Shown here one piece after another: positions 5,549-48,340 of a stretch of 64,000 nucleotides of DNA (position 1 is the stretch's first letter; each line of letters opens with the position of its first letter). Made by a program: the position numbers and the translations under genes. The notes under the pieces were generated by a model. It made no database searches. It was not told where the DNA came from and was given only the letters and a program-made list of their open reading frames with translations. The stretch is from Escherichia coli (lineage in GTDB: Bacteria; Pseudomonadota; Gammaproteobacteria; Enterobacterales; Enterobacteriaceae): assembly GCF_050920415.1 (NCBI RefSeq), contig NZ_CP169309.1; one strand, 5' to 3'.

Positions 5549-7051
5549 TTACTCATCAATTCGCGGATGCTGCTGCACCAGGCGGGTACGTTTCTCCTGC
5601 AAATCGGCAATCTCGTGGTCAATATCATCGATTTTTTGCTCGATATTATCGTAATGCTCGACGAGAATTTCCTTCGCTTCCTGTATATCTGACGCCGCCG
5701 GTGTCGCACCTTTCAACGGACGATTCGCCGTCTCTTTCATGGTTACGCCGGTGATTAAACCAACCACCGCCACTACCATCAGGTAATAGGCAGGCATCAT
5801 CAGATTCTGCGAGCTTTCGACCAGCCAGGCCGCCAACGTTGGCGTCAGACCGGCAACCAGCACCGAAATATTAAATGCCGCCGCCAGCGCGCTGTAACGG
5901 ATATGCGTCGGGAACATCGCTGGCAAGGTAGAAGCCATAACGCCCGTAAAGCAGTTAAGGATCACCGCCAGCATCAGTAACCCGGCAAAAATCAGGCCGA
6001 TGACGTTACTGTTAATCAGAATAAACGCCGGGATCGCCAACACAAACAGTGCAACACTACCAAGTAGCACAAACGGACGACGGCCAAAACGGTCACTCAG
6101 CAAGCCCATCACCGGCTGGACAAACAGCATACCGATCATAATGGCGATAATAATCAGCACCCCGTGGTCTTCGGAGTAATGCAGGTTATGCGACAAATAA
6201 CTCGGCATATAGGTCAGCAACATGTAGTAAGTCACGTTGGTGGCAATTACCAGACCAATACATGTCAACAGGCTGCGCCAGTATTTAGTGGCAATCTCTT
6301 TAAACGAGACTTTCGGGCCATCCTGCAAACCTTCGCGGTCGCCCTGTTCCAGTTTATCAACATGCTGCTGGAACGCCGGAGTTTCTTCCAGCGCATGGCG
6401 CAGGTAAAGCCCGATAATCCCTAACGGCAGAGCAATAAAGAACGGAATACGCCAGCCCCAGTCGAGGAAGTTCGCTTCGCCGACAATGGTCGAAATTAAC
6501 ACCACCACGCCCGCACCCAGCACAAACCCGGCAATAGAACCGAAGTCCAGCCAGCTGCCCATAAAGCCACGTTTACGGTCAGGGGAGTATTCCGCAACAA
6601 ATATCGACGCCCCGGTATATTCACCGCCGACCGAGAAACCTTGTGCCATCTTACAGATCAACAGCAGAATCGGTGCCCAAATACCAATCGTGTCGTAGGA
6701 CGGTATTAAGCCAATACAGAACGTACTGATCGACATAATCACAATAGTGATAGCGAGGATCTTCTGGCGACCATATTTATCGCCCAACATACCAAAGAAG
6801 AGTCCGCCAAGCGGTCGAATCAGAAAGGGAACGGAGAAAGTGGCAAGTGCAGCAACCATCTGCACGCTGGGGTCAGCCCCCGGGAAAAAAACTTTACCTA
6901 ATGCGTAAGCAACAAAACCATAAACACCAAAATCGAACCATTCCATTGCATTACCCAGTGATGCTGCGGTAATGGCTTTACGCAGTTTACCGTCATCAAT
7001 AATAGTGACATCACGAAGGGTAATCGGTTTTACTTTTTTCCTTTTCAGCAT
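5549..7051 (-). CDS. proP: Proline/glycine betaine:H+ symporter ProP (MFS osmosensor)
   Basis: Track ORF 5549..7084; start placed at MLKRKKVKPITLRD (500 aa); C-terminal coiled-coil tail (DIQEAKEILVEHYDNIEQKIDDIDHEIADLQEKRTRL) typical of ProP. Confidence 0.92.
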   Translation of the reverse strand: MLKRKKVKPITLRDVTIIDDGKLRKAITAASLGNAMEWFDFGVYGFVAYALGKVFFPGADPSVQMVAALATFSVPFLIRPLGGLFFGMLGDKYGRQKILAITIVIMSISTFCIGLIPSYDTIGIWAPILLLICKMAQGFSVGGEYTGASIFVAEYSPDRKRGFMGSWLDFGSIAGFVLGAGVVVLISTIVGEANFLDWGWRIPFFIALPLGIIGLYLRHALEETPAFQQHVDKLEQGDREGLQDGPKVSFKEIATKYWRSLLTCIGLVIATNVTYYMLLTYMPSYLSHNLHYSEDHGVLIIIAIMIGMLFVQPVMGLLSDRFGRRPFVLLGSVALFVLAIPAFILINSNVIGLIFAGLLMLAVILNCFTGVMASTLPAMFPTHIRYSALAAAFNISVLVAGLTPTLAAWLVESSQNLMMPAYYLMVVAVVGLITGVTMKETANRPLKGATPAASDIQEAKEILVEHYDNIEQKIDDIDHEIADLQEKRTRLVQQHPRIDE

Positions 7052-7314
7052 AGCTTTCCTCGCAGAGTTGGCCCATTTCCGCAAACGCCAGAAAAATCAG
7101 CGCGACGGCCGCAAAAGGGGAGCGGGAATTGCAGGATGCAATCTCTGTAACAAGCGTAGCGGGTTTGCTTACACCCTCCGGTTAAGGAATGTACAATCAA
7201 ACCAGTTGACGCCTGAATTGGGCAGTTAATGACCTTTTTACCCTACCAGTGTTTAAATTTGTGATCAACTTCACACATGGATTTCGTTTAGGACTCATTG
7301 ATGTAACTGATTAT

Positions 7315-8193
7315 TTACGCCAAATTTACAGAGAAGATTTCCTCGACCATTGCCCCCACCAAACGCTGCGCTGAACAGAGTCGTGGCATCCCCAGCGCGA
7401 CAGTTTGCCAGCGTTGGGTCACTGACCAGCAAACGGGTTGTTTATCTGCCGTGGACCACTTTCCCAGCCAACTTAAAAAATCAGCATGATCCCCACCCGT
7501 CGGGGCGGTTGAAGAGGTAAACCACTGATGGTAATAGTGACGCGTGGTCGTTGCCGCATTAATACTCTCTGCCAGATGTTGTGTCGCTTTCTCGCGCAAA
7601 TCACCCAGCAACAACGCCACCGCTTGCGGGCTTCCTAGACGGCAGGCATCGCCAAATGCCCCCCAGCGCAGTTCCTCCAGAACGATAAAACAGCGCCCAG
7701 GCAACGACCAGGCGTTATACGCACCAGCACGCCAGCGGGTAAAAATTTGCTCACTCTGATCACCGGCCTGTACCAGTAATCCTCGTTGCGTTAACGCCTT
7801 TTCCTTCCAGCGACAACGGGCTGAAAACAACTCATACAAGGCGGCAATTTGCTGGGGGAGCTCCGGGAAAGCAGAGTGCTGGCGGTGATCCATTTTTTGC
7901 AGCAGCGCCAGATGCTGCGCGATCTGCGTCAGCGCCAGATGACCGGGATCCAGCATCGACGCCAGTTTTTCCACCAATGTCAGACGCAGGCTAAGCGGCG
8001 CATTTAACATGCCGCCGTTCGTCCATGCCTGAAGCTGCACGCGCGCAAGAAGTTCCTGCATCAGTCGTTCACGAAACTGCTGCTGATGGGCTTGTGGATG
8101 GCGGGCATCATCGCCCTGCGCCAGATCCACTAAAAAGCGGGAATGAATCGACTCCAGCACGCGACCGGGGCCGTCCAGTAACGTCTTGGTCAA
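7315..8193 (-). CDS. yjcZ: Uncharacterised protein YjcZ, translationally coupled to crfC
   Basis: 292 aa; start overlaps the crfC stop by 4 nt (ATGA); recognised as E. coli YjcZ. Confidence 0.8.
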   Translation of the reverse strand: MTKTLLDGPGRVLESIHSRFLVDLAQGDDARHPQAHQQQFRERLMQELLARVQLQAWTNGGMLNAPLSLRLTLVEKLASMLDPGHLALTQIAQHLALLQKMDHRQHSAFPELPQQIAALYELFSARCRWKEKALTQRGLLVQAGDQSEQIFTRWRAGAYNAWSLPGRCFIVLEELRWGAFGDACRLGSPQAVALLLGDLREKATQHLAESINAATTTRHYYHQWFTSSTAPTGGDHADFLSWLGKWSTADKQPVCWSVTQRWQTVALGMPRLCSAQRLVGAMVEEIFSVNLA

Positions 8194-10418
8194 TATCGTT
8201 CTGCCGTGAAAAGTGTTTGAATATCATCGCGTAACAGCTGAGCGTCGGTGTAAATCCAGCCATGAGTCATCACAGTCTGCTGCAATTGCTGCTGCATCAG
8301 CCTGACCACCGATTCATTTTGTTGACGCAGAGCCAGACTTTCGCATAAACGCGTCTGTAATTCCGTCAAACATGAAGCGAACTCAGCGAAAAAAGTATTC
8401 ATGCCTGCCGTAACAGATTCATCGACCTGCTCTGCCAGAACTTTAGCCATTTGTTGGCAATAAAGATCGACTTCTGCGCTTAATGCTCGTTGCAACGCAC
8501 TGTAATCAACCGTCTCTATCGGGGATTTCTCATTTCCCCGTCCCCAGTCGGGCTGATTCAACCAGCGCGAAAAAGTCTCACGCACAACGCCTAAACGCGT
8601 GCTCTGCTCGTCCATTGCGTCCTGGCGCGAAATGACTTCACTGAACAGCTGGCGAGTGTTGAAGTGGGGAACTGCGCCGTGAAAAACAGGAAAATGAAAC
8701 CCAGGACGAAACCCTGACTCGCTCAATTCCATTTTGACTTGTTGCTCAATGGGCCGAATAACATCGGTTAACACCCGGCAAAGAGTGGATTCAAGCTCGG
8801 CAAAACGCAGCGTAAAGTCGCGACTGATGGTGTTCTGCGCCGTCTGTAACAGTGTCTCACAGCAGGTACGAATCTCGCTTAATGACCCCGAATCATCCTG
8901 AAACAACGCGGCTAACTGGGCATTCACCGCATCTTGCTGTTGACGCAGAAAGAGGTTGGCGGAGGTCAGGGCCAGCTCGATTTCATGTTTAATCTCGCCG
9001 CTCACCTGAGCCTGATTGAGTTGAAATAGCTGCAAACTTTCTTCGATCTGGTGGATATTTTGCCGCAATTGTTCACAAGCGACGTTTAACCCGTGCGCAC
9101 GAAAATCCAGGTATTCCCGCGCCTGCTGCGCGTAATTCAACAGTTTATGCGCGGCAGATCGCAGAGCATACAACGAGGCGTTAGCGTAAGCGGCATGAAG
9201 CAACGCCTGAATTGGCTGGGCGAACAGCGAATCTTCCCACAACTGATCGGCAGCATGACGAATATGTTCGAGGTCCGCCAGGTCGGCATGACGCCAGCGC
9301 CTGCCGAGCGCGGCATGGGCAAAATCTTCCACCCAGCGTTGTTGCTCTGGCGCGGGTAACTTACCGTTGTTGGCTAACTCATTACGCGCCCGATTCGCCA
9401 GGTAGCCCCACATCGACGACACTGGAAATATCTGCTGTGGCGTAATACAGCCTTTCATCAGCGTCCCGGAAATCAGTGCCCGCACCTGGTCGGCGTCGTC
9501 ACTGTTACGATCCTGTTGATCGAACTTATTGACCAGCACATACAGCGGCACCGATTGCCCCACCGCCAAAATCGCCTCACGGACCTCTTCATCGGAGATC
9601 GATTTCAGTTGCGTATAATCCAGCACCGCCAGTACCGCCGAGGCGCGAGCCAGCTGCTGGTTAAGCATTTTTTGCAGATGCGGTTGCCCGGCTTCATTTG
9701 GCCCAGGGGTATCCAGTAACGTCAACTGACCGGGATAACTCTCCAGCCCCGCCAGATGGACAAACTCCACTTCAATCACGGGAATATGCTCAATGGCGGC
9801 GTAAGCAGAAAAAGGAAAATCGACGTCCAGCGCCTTCGCCAGTCGCACCAAATCATTCAAACTTTTCAGACAATGAAAAATAGGCTGGGCACCCAGATAA
9901 TATTTTTCGAAAGCGACGCCATTTTCGATCCGCTGCATAAGCGCACGCATATCTTTATCTATTTCCAGCACATCGGTCAGATGCTTAATATCGCAGTCAC
10001 GCAGGCGCTGTTGTAATTGTTGAATTAAACAGTCGATTGGCGCGACATGTGAAAAATGCAGTACCGGTTCTTTTTGCCCGGGCGTATGGCGAATAAGCGT
10101 CGGCAGCGCAGTCATTGGGCGATTGCGATTAGGCAGAACCTCCGTACCAACAATGGCATTAATGGTGGTTGATTTCCCTGCTTTCATAGTACCGACAATT
10201 GCCAGCACCATTTCCAGTCGGGAAATTTTACGCAACTCATTATTCAGCATCGCGTGACGTTCGGCGATATTAGGCTGACTCCAGGGTAAAGCCAGTTGTG
10301 GCGCATCGTCTCCGGGTACAGAGAGAGGCATTTTTTCTAGTAACTGCAACTGTTGGCGAGAAAGCTGTAACAGGCGTTCAGCCTCCTGACTTAACTCATA
10401 CAGGGTCTGTGTGTACAT
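8190..10418 (-). CDS. crfC: Bacterial dynamin-like GTPase CrfC (YjdA)
   Basis: 742 aa; P-loop GTMKAGKSTTINAIVG near the N-terminus, then a long helical, Q/L-rich stalk region. Confidence 0.88.
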   Translation of the reverse strand: MYTQTLYELSQEAERLLQLSRQQLQLLEKMPLSVPGDDAPQLALPWSQPNIAERHAMLNNELRKISRLEMVLAIVGTMKAGKSTTINAIVGTEVLPNRNRPMTALPTLIRHTPGQKEPVLHFSHVAPIDCLIQQLQQRLRDCDIKHLTDVLEIDKDMRALMQRIENGVAFEKYYLGAQPIFHCLKSLNDLVRLAKALDVDFPFSAYAAIEHIPVIEVEFVHLAGLESYPGQLTLLDTPGPNEAGQPHLQKMLNQQLARASAVLAVLDYTQLKSISDEEVREAILAVGQSVPLYVLVNKFDQQDRNSDDADQVRALISGTLMKGCITPQQIFPVSSMWGYLANRARNELANNGKLPAPEQQRWVEDFAHAALGRRWRHADLADLEHIRHAADQLWEDSLFAQPIQALLHAAYANASLYALRSAAHKLLNYAQQAREYLDFRAHGLNVACEQLRQNIHQIEESLQLFQLNQAQVSGEIKHEIELALTSANLFLRQQQDAVNAQLAALFQDDSGSLSEIRTCCETLLQTAQNTISRDFTLRFAELESTLCRVLTDVIRPIEQQVKMELSESGFRPGFHFPVFHGAVPHFNTRQLFSEVISRQDAMDEQSTRLGVVRETFSRWLNQPDWGRGNEKSPIETVDYSALQRALSAEVDLYCQQMAKVLAEQVDESVTAGMNTFFAEFASCLTELQTRLCESLALRQQNESVVRLMQQQLQQTVMTHGWIYTDAQLLRDDIQTLFTAERY

Positions 10419-10819
10419 AGAAAATTTTTCCTTAAAGCAAATTTTATTACTTTTATTTAGCCAGATTGTTTTTGAGTTCTGTTTTCGGCTTTTATAATTA
10501 CTGCAAGAAATAATTTTATATTTAGAGTGTTGTTTTTTATTAGAATAAATAACGTCTTCCGATACGTTTAAAACGTCAGAAAGATAAAAATATCATTTGA
10601 ATTAAAAAAAGAACAAGTAGAGCATTAACCTTATCTTAAATAATAAATGGAGGCAAAAAGATTATTTTCTTTTTGCGTTTCCTTTCAAATGAAAACGATC
10701 GTCGTCTAAAATCAGCAGTACCCCCGACAAACTCAGGGATTTTGTGTATAATTGCGGCCTTTTTCGGCAATCTGCCGTTTTTTGGCGCTTTTGCCCTGCT
10801 GACTTTTGAGGAAATCCAC

Positions 10820-11155
10820 ATGTCATTACCACACTGCCCAAAATGCAACTCCGAATACACCTACGAAGATAACGGCATGTACATCTGCCCGGAATGTGCC
10901 TACGAATGGAACGACGCAGAACCTGCACAGGAAAGCGACGAGCTGATCGTTAAAGATGCTAACGGCAATCTGCTGGCTGACGGCGACAGCGTTACCATCA
11001 TTAAAGATCTGAAGGTGAAAGGTAGCTCTTCGATGCTGAAGATCGGTACCAAAGTGAAAAACATTCGCCTGGTTGAAGGCGACCACAACATCGATTGCAA
11101 AATCGACGGTTTTGGTCCGATGAAACTGAAATCTGAGTTTGTGAAAAAGAACTGA
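10820..11155 (+). CDS. yjdM: Zinc-ribbon protein YjdM (PhnA)
   Basis: 111 aa beginning [30 protein letters not shown] (two CxxC pairs); the longer track ORF (10673..) extends through an AT-rich leader and was trimmed. Confidence 0.88.
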
Positions 11156-11187
11156 TTGTATTGCTCAATGTAATATTGGCACATGAT

Positions 11188-11335
11188 CGGTAGGCCGGAT
11201 AAGGCGCTCGCGCCGCATCCGGCTACGGTGCCGACTGCCTGATGCGACGCTCGCGCGTCTTATCAGGCCTACAAATTCTCGCACCATCCGGCAACGGTGC
11301 CTAATGCGACGCTTACCGAGTCTTATCAGCCCCCG
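11188..11335. repeat. REP/BIME cluster (about 3 REP palindromes)
   Basis: Repeated taggccggataaggcg...cgccgcatccggc and gcctgatgcgacgc...gtcttatcaggcctac units between yjdM and yjdN. Confidence 0.75.
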
Positions 11336-46791: not shown

Positions 46792-46811
46792 CCCCGGTCG
46801 TCTGACCGGGG
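46792..46811 (+). terminator. Hairpin after actP (possible terminator)
   Basis: ccccggtcgtctgaccgggg inverted repeat 12 nt after the actP stop; lacks a clear T-tract. Confidence 0.35.
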
Positions 46812-46958
46812 AATACTCTTCCTCTCCAATATGCATCATCTTTTCCCATAATATTAAACAAATAAACTCATTAAAAAAATGAGCGATTTTTGACAGTCGT
46901 AGAAAATGATAATGCAGAGAATATGCCTTTTCTTTCTTGTTAATTATAAGGATATTTT

Positions 46959-48251
46959 ATGCGCTATAATGGTTTAAATAATATGTTTTTCCCTCTTTGC
47001 CTGATTAACGATAACCACCCTGTCACAAGTCCATCACATACAAAGGAAACAAAATCAGATAATTATAGCAAACATCATAAAGACACGTTAATTGACAATA
47101 AAGCCCTCTCTCTTTTCAAAATGGATGATCATGAAAAAGTGATAGGCTTGATTCAGAAAATGAAAAGAACTTATGATACTTTACCATCAGGAAAAATCAC
47201 TAAAGAAACTGACAGGAAAATTCATAAATATTTTATAGATATAGCTTTATATGCAAGTAATAAATATGACGATAGAATTACGAGAAGAGTTTACCTTAAT
47301 AAAGATAAGGAAGTGTCAATTAAGGTAGTGTATTTTATAAATAATGTCACTGTCCATAATAATACTATCGAAATCCCACAGACAGTAAATGGTGGTTACG
47401 ATTTTTCACACCTTAGCCTGAAAGGTATCAGGATTAAAGATGAAGATTTATCCAATTCGGATTTTGCAGGTTGCAGACTACAAAATGCTATTTTCCAGGG
47501 CTGTAATATGTATCAAACGAATTTTAATTTTGCCATAATGGAAAAAATAATTTTTGATAATTGTATTCTCGATGACTCAAATTTCGCTCAGATAAAAATG
47601 ACTGACGGAACTCTAAATGCATGCTCCGCTATGCATGTTGAATTCTTCAATGCAACAATGATTAGAGCTAAAATTAAAAATACCTTCCTTGACTATTCAA
47701 ATTTTTATATGGCGTACATGGCTGAGGTGAATCTTTATAAAGTAATAGCGCCATATGTTAATTTATTTAGAGCCGACCTTAGTTTCTCTAAACTCGATTT
47801 AATTAACTTTGAACATGCTAATCTTTCTCGCGTCAACCTGAACAAAGCAACCCTCCAGAATATAAACTTAATTAATAGCAAACTCTTTTTTACGCGGCTG
47901 ACAAATACGTTCCTCGAAATGGTTATATGTACCGATTCTAATATGGCTAATGCTAATTTTAATAATGCCAATTTAAGCAATTGCCATTTCAACTGTTCTA
48001 TTTTAACAAAAGCCTGGATGTTTAATACCCGTTTCTATCGGGTTAATTTCGATGAGGCTATCGTCCAGGGAATGGGCATATCCATTCTCCGTGGGGAGGA
48101 TAATATTCCCATTAATAGTGATATCCTGATAACACTACAGCAACTCTTTGAAGAGGATTGTGCCACTCATACTGGCATGTCACAAACTGAGCATAATATT
48201 CAGGAAGTGTCTATGAATACCACTGAAGATACTATGCAATACGCAGATTGA
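46959..48251 (+). CDS. yjcF: Pentapeptide-repeat protein YjcF (AT-rich gene)
   Basis: 430 aa; long series of A(D/N)LSxxxFxxAxL-type pentapeptide repeats between about residues 150 and 350; visibly AT-rich codon usage compared with neighbours. Confidence 0.82.
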   Translation: MRYNGLNNMFFPLCLINDNHPVTSPSHTKETKSDNYSKHHKDTLIDNKALSLFKMDDHEKVIGLIQKMKRTYDTLPSGKITKETDRKIHKYFIDIALYASNKYDDRITRRVYLNKDKEVSIKVVYFINNVTVHNNTIEIPQTVNGGYDFSHLSLKGIRIKDEDLSNSDFAGCRLQNAIFQGCNMYQTNFNFAIMEKIIFDNCILDDSNFAQIKMTDGTLNACSAMHVEFFNATMIRAKIKNTFLDYSNFYMAYMAEVNLYKVIAPYVNLFRADLSFSKLDLINFEHANLSRVNLNKATLQNINLINSKLFFTRLTNTFLEMVICTDSNMANANFNNANLSNCHFNCSILTKAWMFNTRFYRVNFDEAIVQGMGISILRGEDNIPINSDILITLQQLFEEDCATHTGMSQTEHNIQEVSMNTTEDTMQYAD

Positions 48252-48340
48252 GATTAAGCCGAAGAATAGCCAATGAATTGACTTTAAAAGAGAGATACTC
48301 ACGGACTTCTGACTTATTTATTTTAGAATCATGAATGTTA

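Follow-up and report, generated by a model that had tools for sequence, protein, structure and literature searches.

In Escherichia coli K-12, the proteins encoded by crfC (yjdA) and yjcZ have been described as RdcA and RdcB, regulators of the diguanylate cyclase DgcE (Pfiffer, Sarenko, Possling, and Hengge 2019, PMC6510439). In two-hybrid assays, RdcB (YjcZ) binds RdcA (YjdA/CrfC) and RdcA binds DgcE(MASE1), and deletion of either rdcA or rdcB phenocopies deletion of dgcE in a non-additive manner. Both genes were also recovered among the low c-di-GMP mutants of a 2026 transposon screen (PMC13031359). Others have reported GTP hydrolysis and nucleotide-dependent self-assembly of CrfC/RdcA. In the mechanism that the experiments of others support, RdcA is a soluble, oligomerizing dynamin-like GTPase bound by the small protein RdcB; the two are jointly required, and DgcE is activated through docking on its MASE1 membrane domain, raising c-di-GMP and switching on CsgD, curli, and cellulose. 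Others have likewise reported that GTP hydrolysis by RdcA is required and that DgcE binding is lost in GTP-locked RdcA, and it has been hypothesized that the pair senses the drop in cellular GTP on entry into stationary phase.

The same protein has been studied as a clamp binder (Ozaki et al. 2013; Taniguchi et al. 2019, PMC6374313), and RdcA has been shown by others to attach to the replication clamp by an N-terminal motif. The Katayama group sees clamp-mediated chromosome partition as the role of CrfC (PMC6374313), and the main function of the protein is disputed. Two aspects of expression have also been described in K-12: repression of crfC by H-NS, which occupies its promoter region (Taniguchi et al. 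2019, PMC6374313), and transcription of yjcZ from a FliA promoter within crfC (Fitzgerald, Bonocora, and Wade 2014, PMC4183435). Campylobacter DLP1/DLP2, ETEC LeoA/LeoBC, B. subtilis DynA, and Eleos resemble the pair in that the gene of a stalked dynamin-superfamily GTPase shares its operon with a partner gene. They differ from it in that the RdcB partner is not a dynamin, that the output is a signaling enzyme rather than membrane remodeling, and that RdcA, according to the literature, has no membrane paddle. E. coli operons encoding a dynamin, an RdcB-like protein, and a patatin (PAI-CFT073-aspV, "island 8") were remarked on in BMC Genomics in 2026 (PMC12922286).

The locus analyzed here lies in a window of 64,000 nucleotides of E. 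coli DNA, by which we mean the whole stretch under study. Its two genes and their junction are as follows.

8190..10418, minus strand: crfC (= yjdA = rdcA), an open reading frame of 742 aa with an ATG start, encoding a dynamin-like GTPase
7315..8193, minus strand: yjcZ (= rdcB), an open reading frame of 292 aa with a TTG start, encoding the RdcA partner protein
8190..8193, minus strand: the TTGA overlap of the crfC TGA stop and the yjcZ TTG start, located in the junction sequence, a probable termination-reinitiation coupling site

The list of open reading frames and the junction sequence bear out the frames, lengths, and 4-nt overlap given in an earlier reading of this DNA (hereafter the sequence-only reading), and the RefSeq annotation of both genes has matching coordinates in two genomes, one of them 100% identical and the other a K-12 derivative. 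The DNA of the locus is identical (100%) to that of an E. coli chromosome on which crfC and rdcB are annotated, and RefSeq gives the yjcZ product as "diguanylate cyclase regulator RdcB family protein." K-12-derived strains are about 98% identical to the locus in DNA, with gene order, overlap, and lengths alike; relative to the published RdcA and RdcB, which are those of K-12, the window strain has strain-level substitutions only. K82 and T103, the RdcA residues mutated in the K82A and T103D alleles (PMC6510439), are both present in the window CrfC. At least 80% of the length of the locus is found in 5397 of 5426 E. coli genomes, and its position between yjdM and proP is fixed and is retained across the Enterobacteriaceae. 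A genome scan with a 21-sequence alignment retained 80 loci, all from Enterobacteriaceae, and in all 80 enterobacterial genomes the yjcZ homolog is immediately preceded by a crfC homolog. Outside this family, distant RdcB family members were sampled one at a time and linkage was counted wherever the sequence around them was long enough; a CrfC-type GTPase gene lies directly upstream of the RdcB-like gene in L004, L086, L090, L093, and L094, and likewise in the partial loci L003, L085, L088, and L092. A terminator scan, whose counts did not exceed those of shuffles, gave no convincing candidate between yjcZ and proP, and read-through into proP may occur; at "yjcZ-proP" a weak NtrC ChIP peak has been reported, with a negative gel shift. 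An Rfam scan of 6900..11300 left the AT-rich region upstream of crfC empty and found only a REP-derived naRNA4 element, beyond yjdM. We consider it highly probable that this is the core operon rdcA(crfC/yjdA)-rdcB(yjcZ) of E. coli, with the function outlined above and the three-layer expression proposed below.

The predicted proteins fit the described pair. One feature of CrfC can be placed directly on the DNA.

10170..10193, minus strand: codons of the P-loop/G1 motif GTMKAGKS (residues 76-83, including K82), located in the translation

CrfC carries the P-loop string GTMKAGKSTTINAIVG at residues 76-91, and its G motifs G1-G4 are GTMKAGKS (76-83), T103, DTPG (236-239), and NKFD (297-300). Pfam Dynamin_N covers residues 72-277 (E 7e-18), and the NCBIfam equivalog NF007368, "clamp-binding protein CrfC," aligns over residues 1-742 of 742 with 1583 bits against a cut-off of 1146. 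In the AlphaFold2 model, the G domain is followed by five helices, each of 40-62 residues, and the best structure matches of the fold belong to the dynamin superfamily. The P-loop of the sequence-only reading is therefore found, and the predicted structure agrees with its long helical stalk; by its G motifs, its predicted G domain and helical stalk, and its fold, CrfC appears to be a member of the dynamin superfamily. In YjcZ, residues 21-287 align with the whole Pfam YjcZ model (PF13990, positions 1-272 of 272; E 8e-141), and the protein has no P-loop, no Dynamin_N domain, no NCBIfam match, and no PADLOC match. Its AlphaFold2 model (pLDDT 91.7) is all-alpha. Foldseek of this model against AFDB50 returned YjcZ-family members only, some mislabeled "chemotaxis protein," a profile search of PDB sequences returned coiled-coil noise only, and neither search gave evidence of a GAP-like, GEF-like, or dynamin-stalk-like fold. 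RdcB is thus confidently predicted to be all-helical, with structural relatives confined to its own family.

Expression of the pair appears to be controlled upstream of crfC, within crfC, and at the junction. The relevant features are these.

10419..10819, no strand: AT-rich divergent crfC-yjdM intergenic region, the crfC promoter region, 401 bp, GC 31.2%
10661..10688, minus strand: candidate, best sigma-70-like match TTGAAA-16-AATAAT (10/12 in a consensus scan)
10429..10433, minus strand: crfC Shine-Dalgarno sequence AAGGA, from the sequence, anti-Shine-Dalgarno duplex energy -6.1 kcal/mol
8418..8445, minus strand: sigma-28 promoter TAAAGTTC-N11-GTCGATGA inside the crfC 3' end, an exact match to the K-12 site defined by ChIP-seq/RNA-seq

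The GC content of the intergenic region compares with 52.8% for the window, and its core, at about 10400-10700, falls to 25-26%. Only 0.8% of the 401-bp stretches of the window are equally AT-rich, the sole comparable other locus being yjcF, and the region is AT-rich in all other genera as well (mean GC 0.36 versus 0.55 for the gene). The sequence-only reading, which had placed this region exactly, proposed expression controlled by nucleoid proteins; the proposal agrees with the H-NS repression already published for K-12 (PMC6374313). This promoter region, whose repression by H-NS others have shown in K-12, would constitute the first layer of expression. Sigma-70-like sites number 7 in the region versus 4.3 expected from shuffles, a count not above shuffles, so the match at 10661..10688 should be read as a lead rather than as a mapped promoter.

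The second element, the sigma-28 promoter, is identical over its 28 nt (8445..8418) to the (yjdA)yjcZ site of Fitzgerald 2014. In motile K-12, yjcZ mRNA is almost wholly FliA-dependent, dropping from 52 to 1 on fliA deletion (PMC4183435). Scored against TAAAGTTT-N11-GCCGATAA-like elements, the site has 13 of 16 consensus positions and is the sole match of that quality on the minus strand of 8190..10900. To the published site we add its conservation: in most of the 80 enterobacterial species, its -35 and -10 elements are retained even where codon positions are synonymous. A 2017 preprint by that laboratory (Fitzgerald et al., bioRxiv 10.1101/188474) treats conservation mainly for the flhC/motA site. 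No sigma-28 site with at least 11 of 16 consensus positions was found upstream of crfC; we reject an older prediction of one there, in agreement with Fitzgerald et al., who called it incorrect (PMC4183435). The internal promoter, whose activity others have shown and whose site is present here, would give yjcZ its own flagellar-regulon transcript. The sequence-only reading had set independent transcription of yjcZ against a partnership with CrfC. Such transcription does occur, and the RdcA-RdcB partnership nonetheless stands; independent transcription was a badly chosen refutation because the partnership holds regardless. The possible role that it gave YjcZ, as partner or regulator of CrfC, was correct and already in the literature (PMC6510439, PMC13031359). 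Because yjcZ RNA is mostly FliA-dependent, much RdcB may derive from a transcript without the crfC start codon, an observation that counts against translational coupling.

At the junction, crfC ends ...GAA CGA TAT TGA, and TTG ACC AAG opens yjcZ at 8193; the start codon is TTG, not ATG. Four-nucleotide stop/start overlaps are very common in bacteria, and for that reason the overlap alone is unremarkable; the informative part is its conservation across genera. The 4-nt overlap is found in 73 of the 80 enterobacterial loci, the others having either a 1-nt overlap (3 loci) or a 2-nt gap (4 loci), so that an overlap or a gap of at most 2 nt is kept in every one of the 80 species, spanning about 40-60% protein divergence. 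The anti-Shine-Dalgarno energy is -2.8 kcal/mol for yjcZ, equal to coding background, versus -6.1 for crfC (medians over the 80 loci, -2.4 and -6.1), and a Shine-Dalgarno sequence above coding background is absent for yjcZ across the 80 loci. The co-translation that the sequence-only reading took the overlap to imply thus gains support from comparison. Because the overlap is conserved and yjcZ lacks a Shine-Dalgarno sequence, translation of yjcZ is probably coupled to that of crfC; ribosomes ending at the crfC stop codon would, we infer, supply translation of yjcZ at the overlapping TTG.

Several other readings of the locus deserve consideration. The overlap might be incidental packing, with RdcB made apart from crfC translation and essentially from the sigma-28 transcript, as the loss of yjcZ RNA on fliA deletion, the activity of the internal promoter in lacZ fusions, and the general frequency of such overlaps would suggest. 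We think this unlikely: the tight junction is retained in all 80 species, and a start that lacks a Shine-Dalgarno sequence in all of them, and is a weak TTG in Escherichia, is hard to square with efficient independent initiation. Moreover, an in-frame crfC ATG (Met673, 8402..8400), just 3' of the sigma-28 promoter and retained in 76 of 81 sequences, could, speculatively, bring ribosomes to the junction on the short transcript as well, where RdcB translation may depend on a 70-codon crfC remnant that carries ribosomes from Met673 to the TTG. A different challenge, which concerns the purpose of CrfC rather than the synthesis of RdcB, holds that CrfC is primarily a chromosome-partition factor whose oligomers bind the beta clamp through 41-QLALP, holding sister replication forks together, with yjcZ an uninvolved neighbor and the c-di-GMP role secondary. 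The motif is present in the window.

10284..10298, minus strand: codons of the beta-clamp-binding motif 41-QLALP, located in the translation (motif defined in PMC6374313)

Published localization and Q41A data (summarized in PMC6374313) favor this idea, as does the NCBI family name "clamp-binding protein CrfC," and the motif (residues 41-45) falls where the model has low confidence (residues 33-43), in a linker predicted to be disordered, which is usual for a linear motif. The window also has the AT-rich promoter region of the published clamp binder, which is reported to be repressed by H-NS in K-12. But QLALP is not conserved outside E. coli (Escherichia sp. E1V33 has PPLTLPW, with Q41 lost, and other genera have sequences of the VLPLHF type), whereas the G domain, the RdcB partner gene, and the gene junction are conserved in all 80 species. 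The motif thus appears E. coli-specific, and the RdcB partnership is no part of the clamp model. Pfiffer et al. contend that the effect on replication is mild and propose moonlighting (PMC6510439). A primary role in partition therefore seems improbable to us, although the partition and DgcE roles of CrfC are not mutually exclusive.

It is far less probable still that the pair is a dynamin system for membrane remodeling or phage defense, akin to LeoA/LeoBC (Eleos) or DynA, in which YjcZ would be the second subunit. In PADLOC, CrfC weakly matches LeoBC (24 bits, E 4e-6) and LeoA (21 bits, E 4e-5), and paralogous cassettes lie on islands beside defense-type genes (see below). However, PADLOC matched no defense system with CrfC and YjcZ, no effector gene is attached to crfC-yjcZ, the locus is core and fixed between yjdM and proP rather than island-borne, CrfC is reportedly a soluble protein with no membrane-binding motif, and direct experimental evidence names DgcE as the target. 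Membership in Eleos (LeoA plus LeoBC) was rejected, given the weak CrfC matches and a YjcZ that is no GTPase. The hint of the sequence-only reading at paired bacterial dynamins fails for a related reason: RdcB is all-helical, has no P-loop, is not a GTPase, and matches no LeoA/LeoB-like profile. The preferred reading remains that of a GTPase and a non-GTPase partner acting on DgcE.

Distant relatives of RdcB occur in dynamin/RdcB-like/patatin-phospholipase cassettes, in E. coli and also in many other proteobacteria. In E. coli, these cassettes lie on genomic islands, with neighboring defense-type genes, in about 45% of genomes (2443-2611 of 5426); their proteins are 33% identical to CrfC over its full length and 31% identical to RdcB, and the dynamin/RdcB-like junction overlaps as in crfC-yjcZ. 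They differ from the core pair in being accessory, in lying outside this window, and in carrying the extra patatin-like phospholipase gene. The three-gene cassettes are much more widespread than the core rdcAB pair. The cassette could be a GTP-sensing abortive-infection or conflict system, of which the core pair could be a domesticated relative. Because the gene order GTPase, RdcB-like protein, output enzyme is family-wide, we favor a role for RdcB as an adaptor or co-activator linking GTPase and output over one as a GTPase-activating or nucleotide-release factor, a preference whose basis is gene order only. The broader idea, that RdcB family proteins are general adaptors from a CrfC-type GTPase to an output, DgcE for the core pair and a membrane-degrading lipase for the cassettes, is tentative, and we would give it only about one chance in four.

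The window itself is of little consequence, as publications already cover both genes, the partnership of their products, control by H-NS, and the FliA promoter inside crfC. Added here are the conservation of the overlap, the synonymous-site conservation of the promoter, the RdcB fold model, and the cassette relatives (the cassettes themselves having been remarked on in 2026). The action of RdcB on RdcA matters to c-di-GMP signaling and is of real interest because DgcE is the E. coli master cyclase for the biofilm matrix. The stop/start overlap that lacks a Shine-Dalgarno sequence, the sigma-28 promoter kept at synonymous sites, and the link to patatin cassettes offer concrete handles on RdcB. 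Together, these features suggest that the subunit stoichiometry and flagellar timing of RdcB may be under selection, and that the GTPase-RdcB pair may be a reusable module with exchangeable outputs.

The crfC–yjcZ feature is confirmed; the sequence-only reading described it accurately and drew sound inferences from it, but the system to which it belongs has already been characterized. ORF calling gives the two frames and their 4-nt overlap at coordinates identical to those first proposed, and the P-loop quoted for CrfC lies at residues 76–91, with the remaining G motifs also present.

Features of the crfC–yjcZ locus
8190..10418, minus strand: crfC, ATG start, 742 aa (RefSeq crfC, same coordinates)
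7315..8193, minus strand: yjcZ, TTG start, 292 aa (RefSeq rdcB, same coordinates)
8445..8418, minus strand: sigma-28 site TAAAGTTCTGGCAGAGCAGGTCGATGAA (28 nt), unchanged relative to the published K-12 site
10284..10298: beta-clamp-binding motif 41-QLALP (CrfC residues 41–45), with the functionally important Q41
10419..10819: crfC–yjdM intergenic region, GC 31.2% versus 52.8% for the window

The DNA around these genes (7000..11200) is 100% identical to the chromosome of E. coli MFDS1022581 and ∼98% identical to K-12 derivatives, and at least 80% of it is found in 5397 of 5426 complete E. coli genomes. In some E. coli assemblies, ORFs of 438–442 aa (proteins P0020–P0022) combine the Dynamin_N and YjcZ Pfam domains, one sequence occurring on up to 13 contigs; these resemble products of a deletion or frameshift that joined crfC to yjcZ.

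YjcZ had been proposed as a possible partner or regulator of CrfC, and the literature already documents the pairing. Pfiffer et al. 2019 (PMC6510439) renamed YjdA (CrfC) and YjcZ as RdcA and RdcB, respectively. RdcA dimerizes and binds both RdcB and, through its MASE1 domain, the diguanylate cyclase DgcE; CsgD, curli, cellulose, and c-di-GMP are lost alike, and non-additively, on deletion of rdcA, rdcB, or dgcE (PMC6510439). GTPase-dead RdcA T103D neither activates nor binds DgcE, whereas K82A does, and a drop in GTP at stationary-phase entry has been proposed as the signal; for RdcB, roles as a GAP or a nucleotide-release factor were considered, and neither was assigned (PMC6510439). Both rdcA and rdcB came up again in a 2026 transposon screen that used c-di-GMP biosensors; ynjH was recovered with them and was strongly associated with the RdcA/RdcB system (PMC13031359). 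Fitzgerald et al. 2014 (PMC4183435) also count ynjH as a novel FlhDC/FliA target, so the DgcE activator may have a second component under sigma-28 control.

The arrangement of the two genes is highly conserved. In 80 loci fetched from different enterobacterial species (genera including Escherichia, Citrobacter, Enterobacter, Kosakonia, Leclercia, Lelliottia, Phytobacter, Trabulsiella, Siccibacter, and Franconibacter), every locus has a crfC homologue immediately 5′ of a yjcZ homologue. The two overlap by 4 nt in 73 of the 80 (ATGA, or TTGA in Escherichia) and by 1 nt in three, and are separated by 2 nt in four. In the window, the junction reads TAT TGA / TTG ACC, the 4 nt TTGA being common to both genes. 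The TTG start (8191..8193) is otherwise confined to the three Escherichia loci; the 77 loci from other genera have ATG at the same overlapping position. Pairing of the 20 nt 5′ of the yjcZ start with the anti-Shine–Dalgarno sequence is no better than that of random crfC coding sequence (−2.8 kcal/mol in the window, a value matched by 43% of crfC coding 20-mers; median over the 80 loci, −2.4), whereas crfC has a proper AAGGA with an energy of −6.1, which is also the median over loci. Since a conserved overlap without a ribosome-binding site is the signature of termination–reinitiation, we infer from these sequences that translation of yjcZ is coupled to that of crfC in this manner.

Transcription of yjcZ can be independent of the crfC promoter. 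A FliA (sigma-28) promoter inside yjdA drives yjcZ, and deleting fliA lowered the RNA from 52 to 1 (Fitzgerald et al. 2014, PMC4183435), and its FliA-dependent activity was seen in lacZ fusions (Fitzgerald et al. 2017 preprint, bioRxiv 10.1101/188474). The earlier reading had held that independent transcription of yjcZ would speak against the partnership; such transcription exists, and the partnership nonetheless stands. The site TAAAGTTCTGGCAGAGCAGGTCGATGAA is the sole 13/16 match to the sigma-28 consensus on the minus strand of 8190..10900. At least 7 of the 8 positions of its −35 element are kept in 64 of 81 sequences, and in the −10 element the GTCGAT core shows 81–100% conservation per column. 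Five third-codon positions fall within the two elements and are 79–93% conserved; over the final 330 nt of crfC, the 109 third positions average 58%, and only 14% of them reach 79%. Third positions in the spacer are mostly ordinary (41–63%), except the last, adjoining the −10 element (86%). Because element third positions are conserved above other crfC third positions, the comparison points to selection on the internal promoter itself (a “duon”), with the reservation that the species are related and that codon bias may contribute.

An in-frame crfC ATG, Met673 (8402..8400), lies ∼9 nt 3′ of the expected sigma-28 start (∼8411) and is present in 76 of 81 sequences. One may speculate that on the sigma-28 transcript this ATG would open a 70-codon frame delivering ribosomes to the SD-less TTG of yjcZ. 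The same conservation could also be plain protein constraint on CrfC.

Downstream of yjcZ, the gap to proP (7052..7314) contains no convincing intrinsic terminator, and the yjcZ transcript may read through into proP; one ChIP-seq study lists “yjcZ–proP” as a transcription unit with a weak NtrC peak and a negative gel shift. For proP itself (5549..7084), the mechanical ORF begins at TTG 7084 (511 aa) and RefSeq gives 500 aa from 7051, a difference of ORF calling only. In most non-Escherichia genera (loci L007–L084), proP begins ∼1.7 kb beyond the yjcZ homologue, versus ∼270 bp in Escherichia, so that an extra gene lies between the two in those genera.

Upstream of crfC, the region described as strongly AT-rich (10419..10819) indeed falls in the lowest-GC 0.8% of 401-bp windows. 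The nucleoid-protein control suggested for it has been documented in K-12: the crfC promoter region is bound by H-NS, and loss of hns markedly raises crfC mRNA (Taniguchi et al. 2019, PMC6374313). This idea, like the partner idea and the operon structure, is thus already known. The yjdM/crfC–yjcZ/proP neighborhood is conserved across the sampled genera, and the 300 nt 5′ of crfC are AT-rich in all other genera (mean GC 0.36, range 0.28–0.42, versus 0.55 for the gene), Escherichia being the most extreme. The sole other equally AT-rich stretch in the window (46800..48300; 401-bp GC down to 0.287) carries the pentapeptide-repeat gene yjcF (46959..48251, plus strand); the surrounding 4 kb, used as a query, diverge unusually within E. 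coli (90–95% identity in 5199 of 5422 records). Between yjdM and yjdN, 11193..11269 matches Rfam naRNA4 (CssrE, a REP-derived nucleoid-associated RNA) with 99.2 bits on the plus strand (gathering score 59.5) and 53.7 bits on the minus strand.

Taniguchi et al. 2019 (PMC6374313) also assign CrfC a role in nucleoid partition, with clamp binding through the motif 41-QLALP. The motif falls in a low-confidence linker of the CrfC model and is not conserved: in the CrfC alignment (A4), Escherichia sp. E1V33 has PPLTLPW, and all other genera sampled have a VLPLHF-type sequence with an insertion. Because the motif is replaced outside E. coli, the alignment fits a view of clamp binding as a recent, E. 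coli-specific addition and of RdcA–RdcB pairing as old.

The only Pfam family that YjcZ (RdcB) matches is its own (PF13990), and NCBIfam and PADLOC gave no match. The family comprises 202 clusters at 50% identity (E ≤ 0.001), and an AlphaFold2 model built with 64 diverse homologues from these clusters is all-helical with high confidence (pLDDT 91.7, pTM 0.91). Foldseek against AFDB50 returned family members only, with no informative relative, and a PDB profile search gave only coiled-coil noise; neither these searches nor the best-conserved motif, GRCY..LEELRWGxFGD (residues 166–182), marks RdcB as a GAP or exchange factor.

Distant relatives (≤33% identity to E. coli RdcB) were sampled one by one for gene order. 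In all eight patatin-type loci (L003, L085/L089, L086/L087, L088, L091, L092, L093, and L094), a patatin-like phospholipase gene directly follows the YjcZ homologue, and a gene for an ∼800-aa dynamin-like GTPase precedes it where the sequence reaches; the junctions often overlap. An example outside the window is L089:7361-11714, encoding a dynamin family protein, an RdcB-like protein, and a patatin-like phospholipase. Two other family members (33% and 38% identity) are of a two-gene type. Defense-type genes (MoxR/VWA, NERD-UvrD, and AAA_15 ATPases) adjoin two of the patatin-type loci, and paralogous three-gene cassettes occur on genomic islands in 2443–2611 of 5426 complete E. coli genomes. 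No PADLOC system matched the cassettes, and a 2026 paper names them a putative defense system, so that as an observation the cassette is already known. On the basis of this order, GTPase/RdcB-like protein/enzyme, we favor RdcB as a putative adaptor or co-activator.
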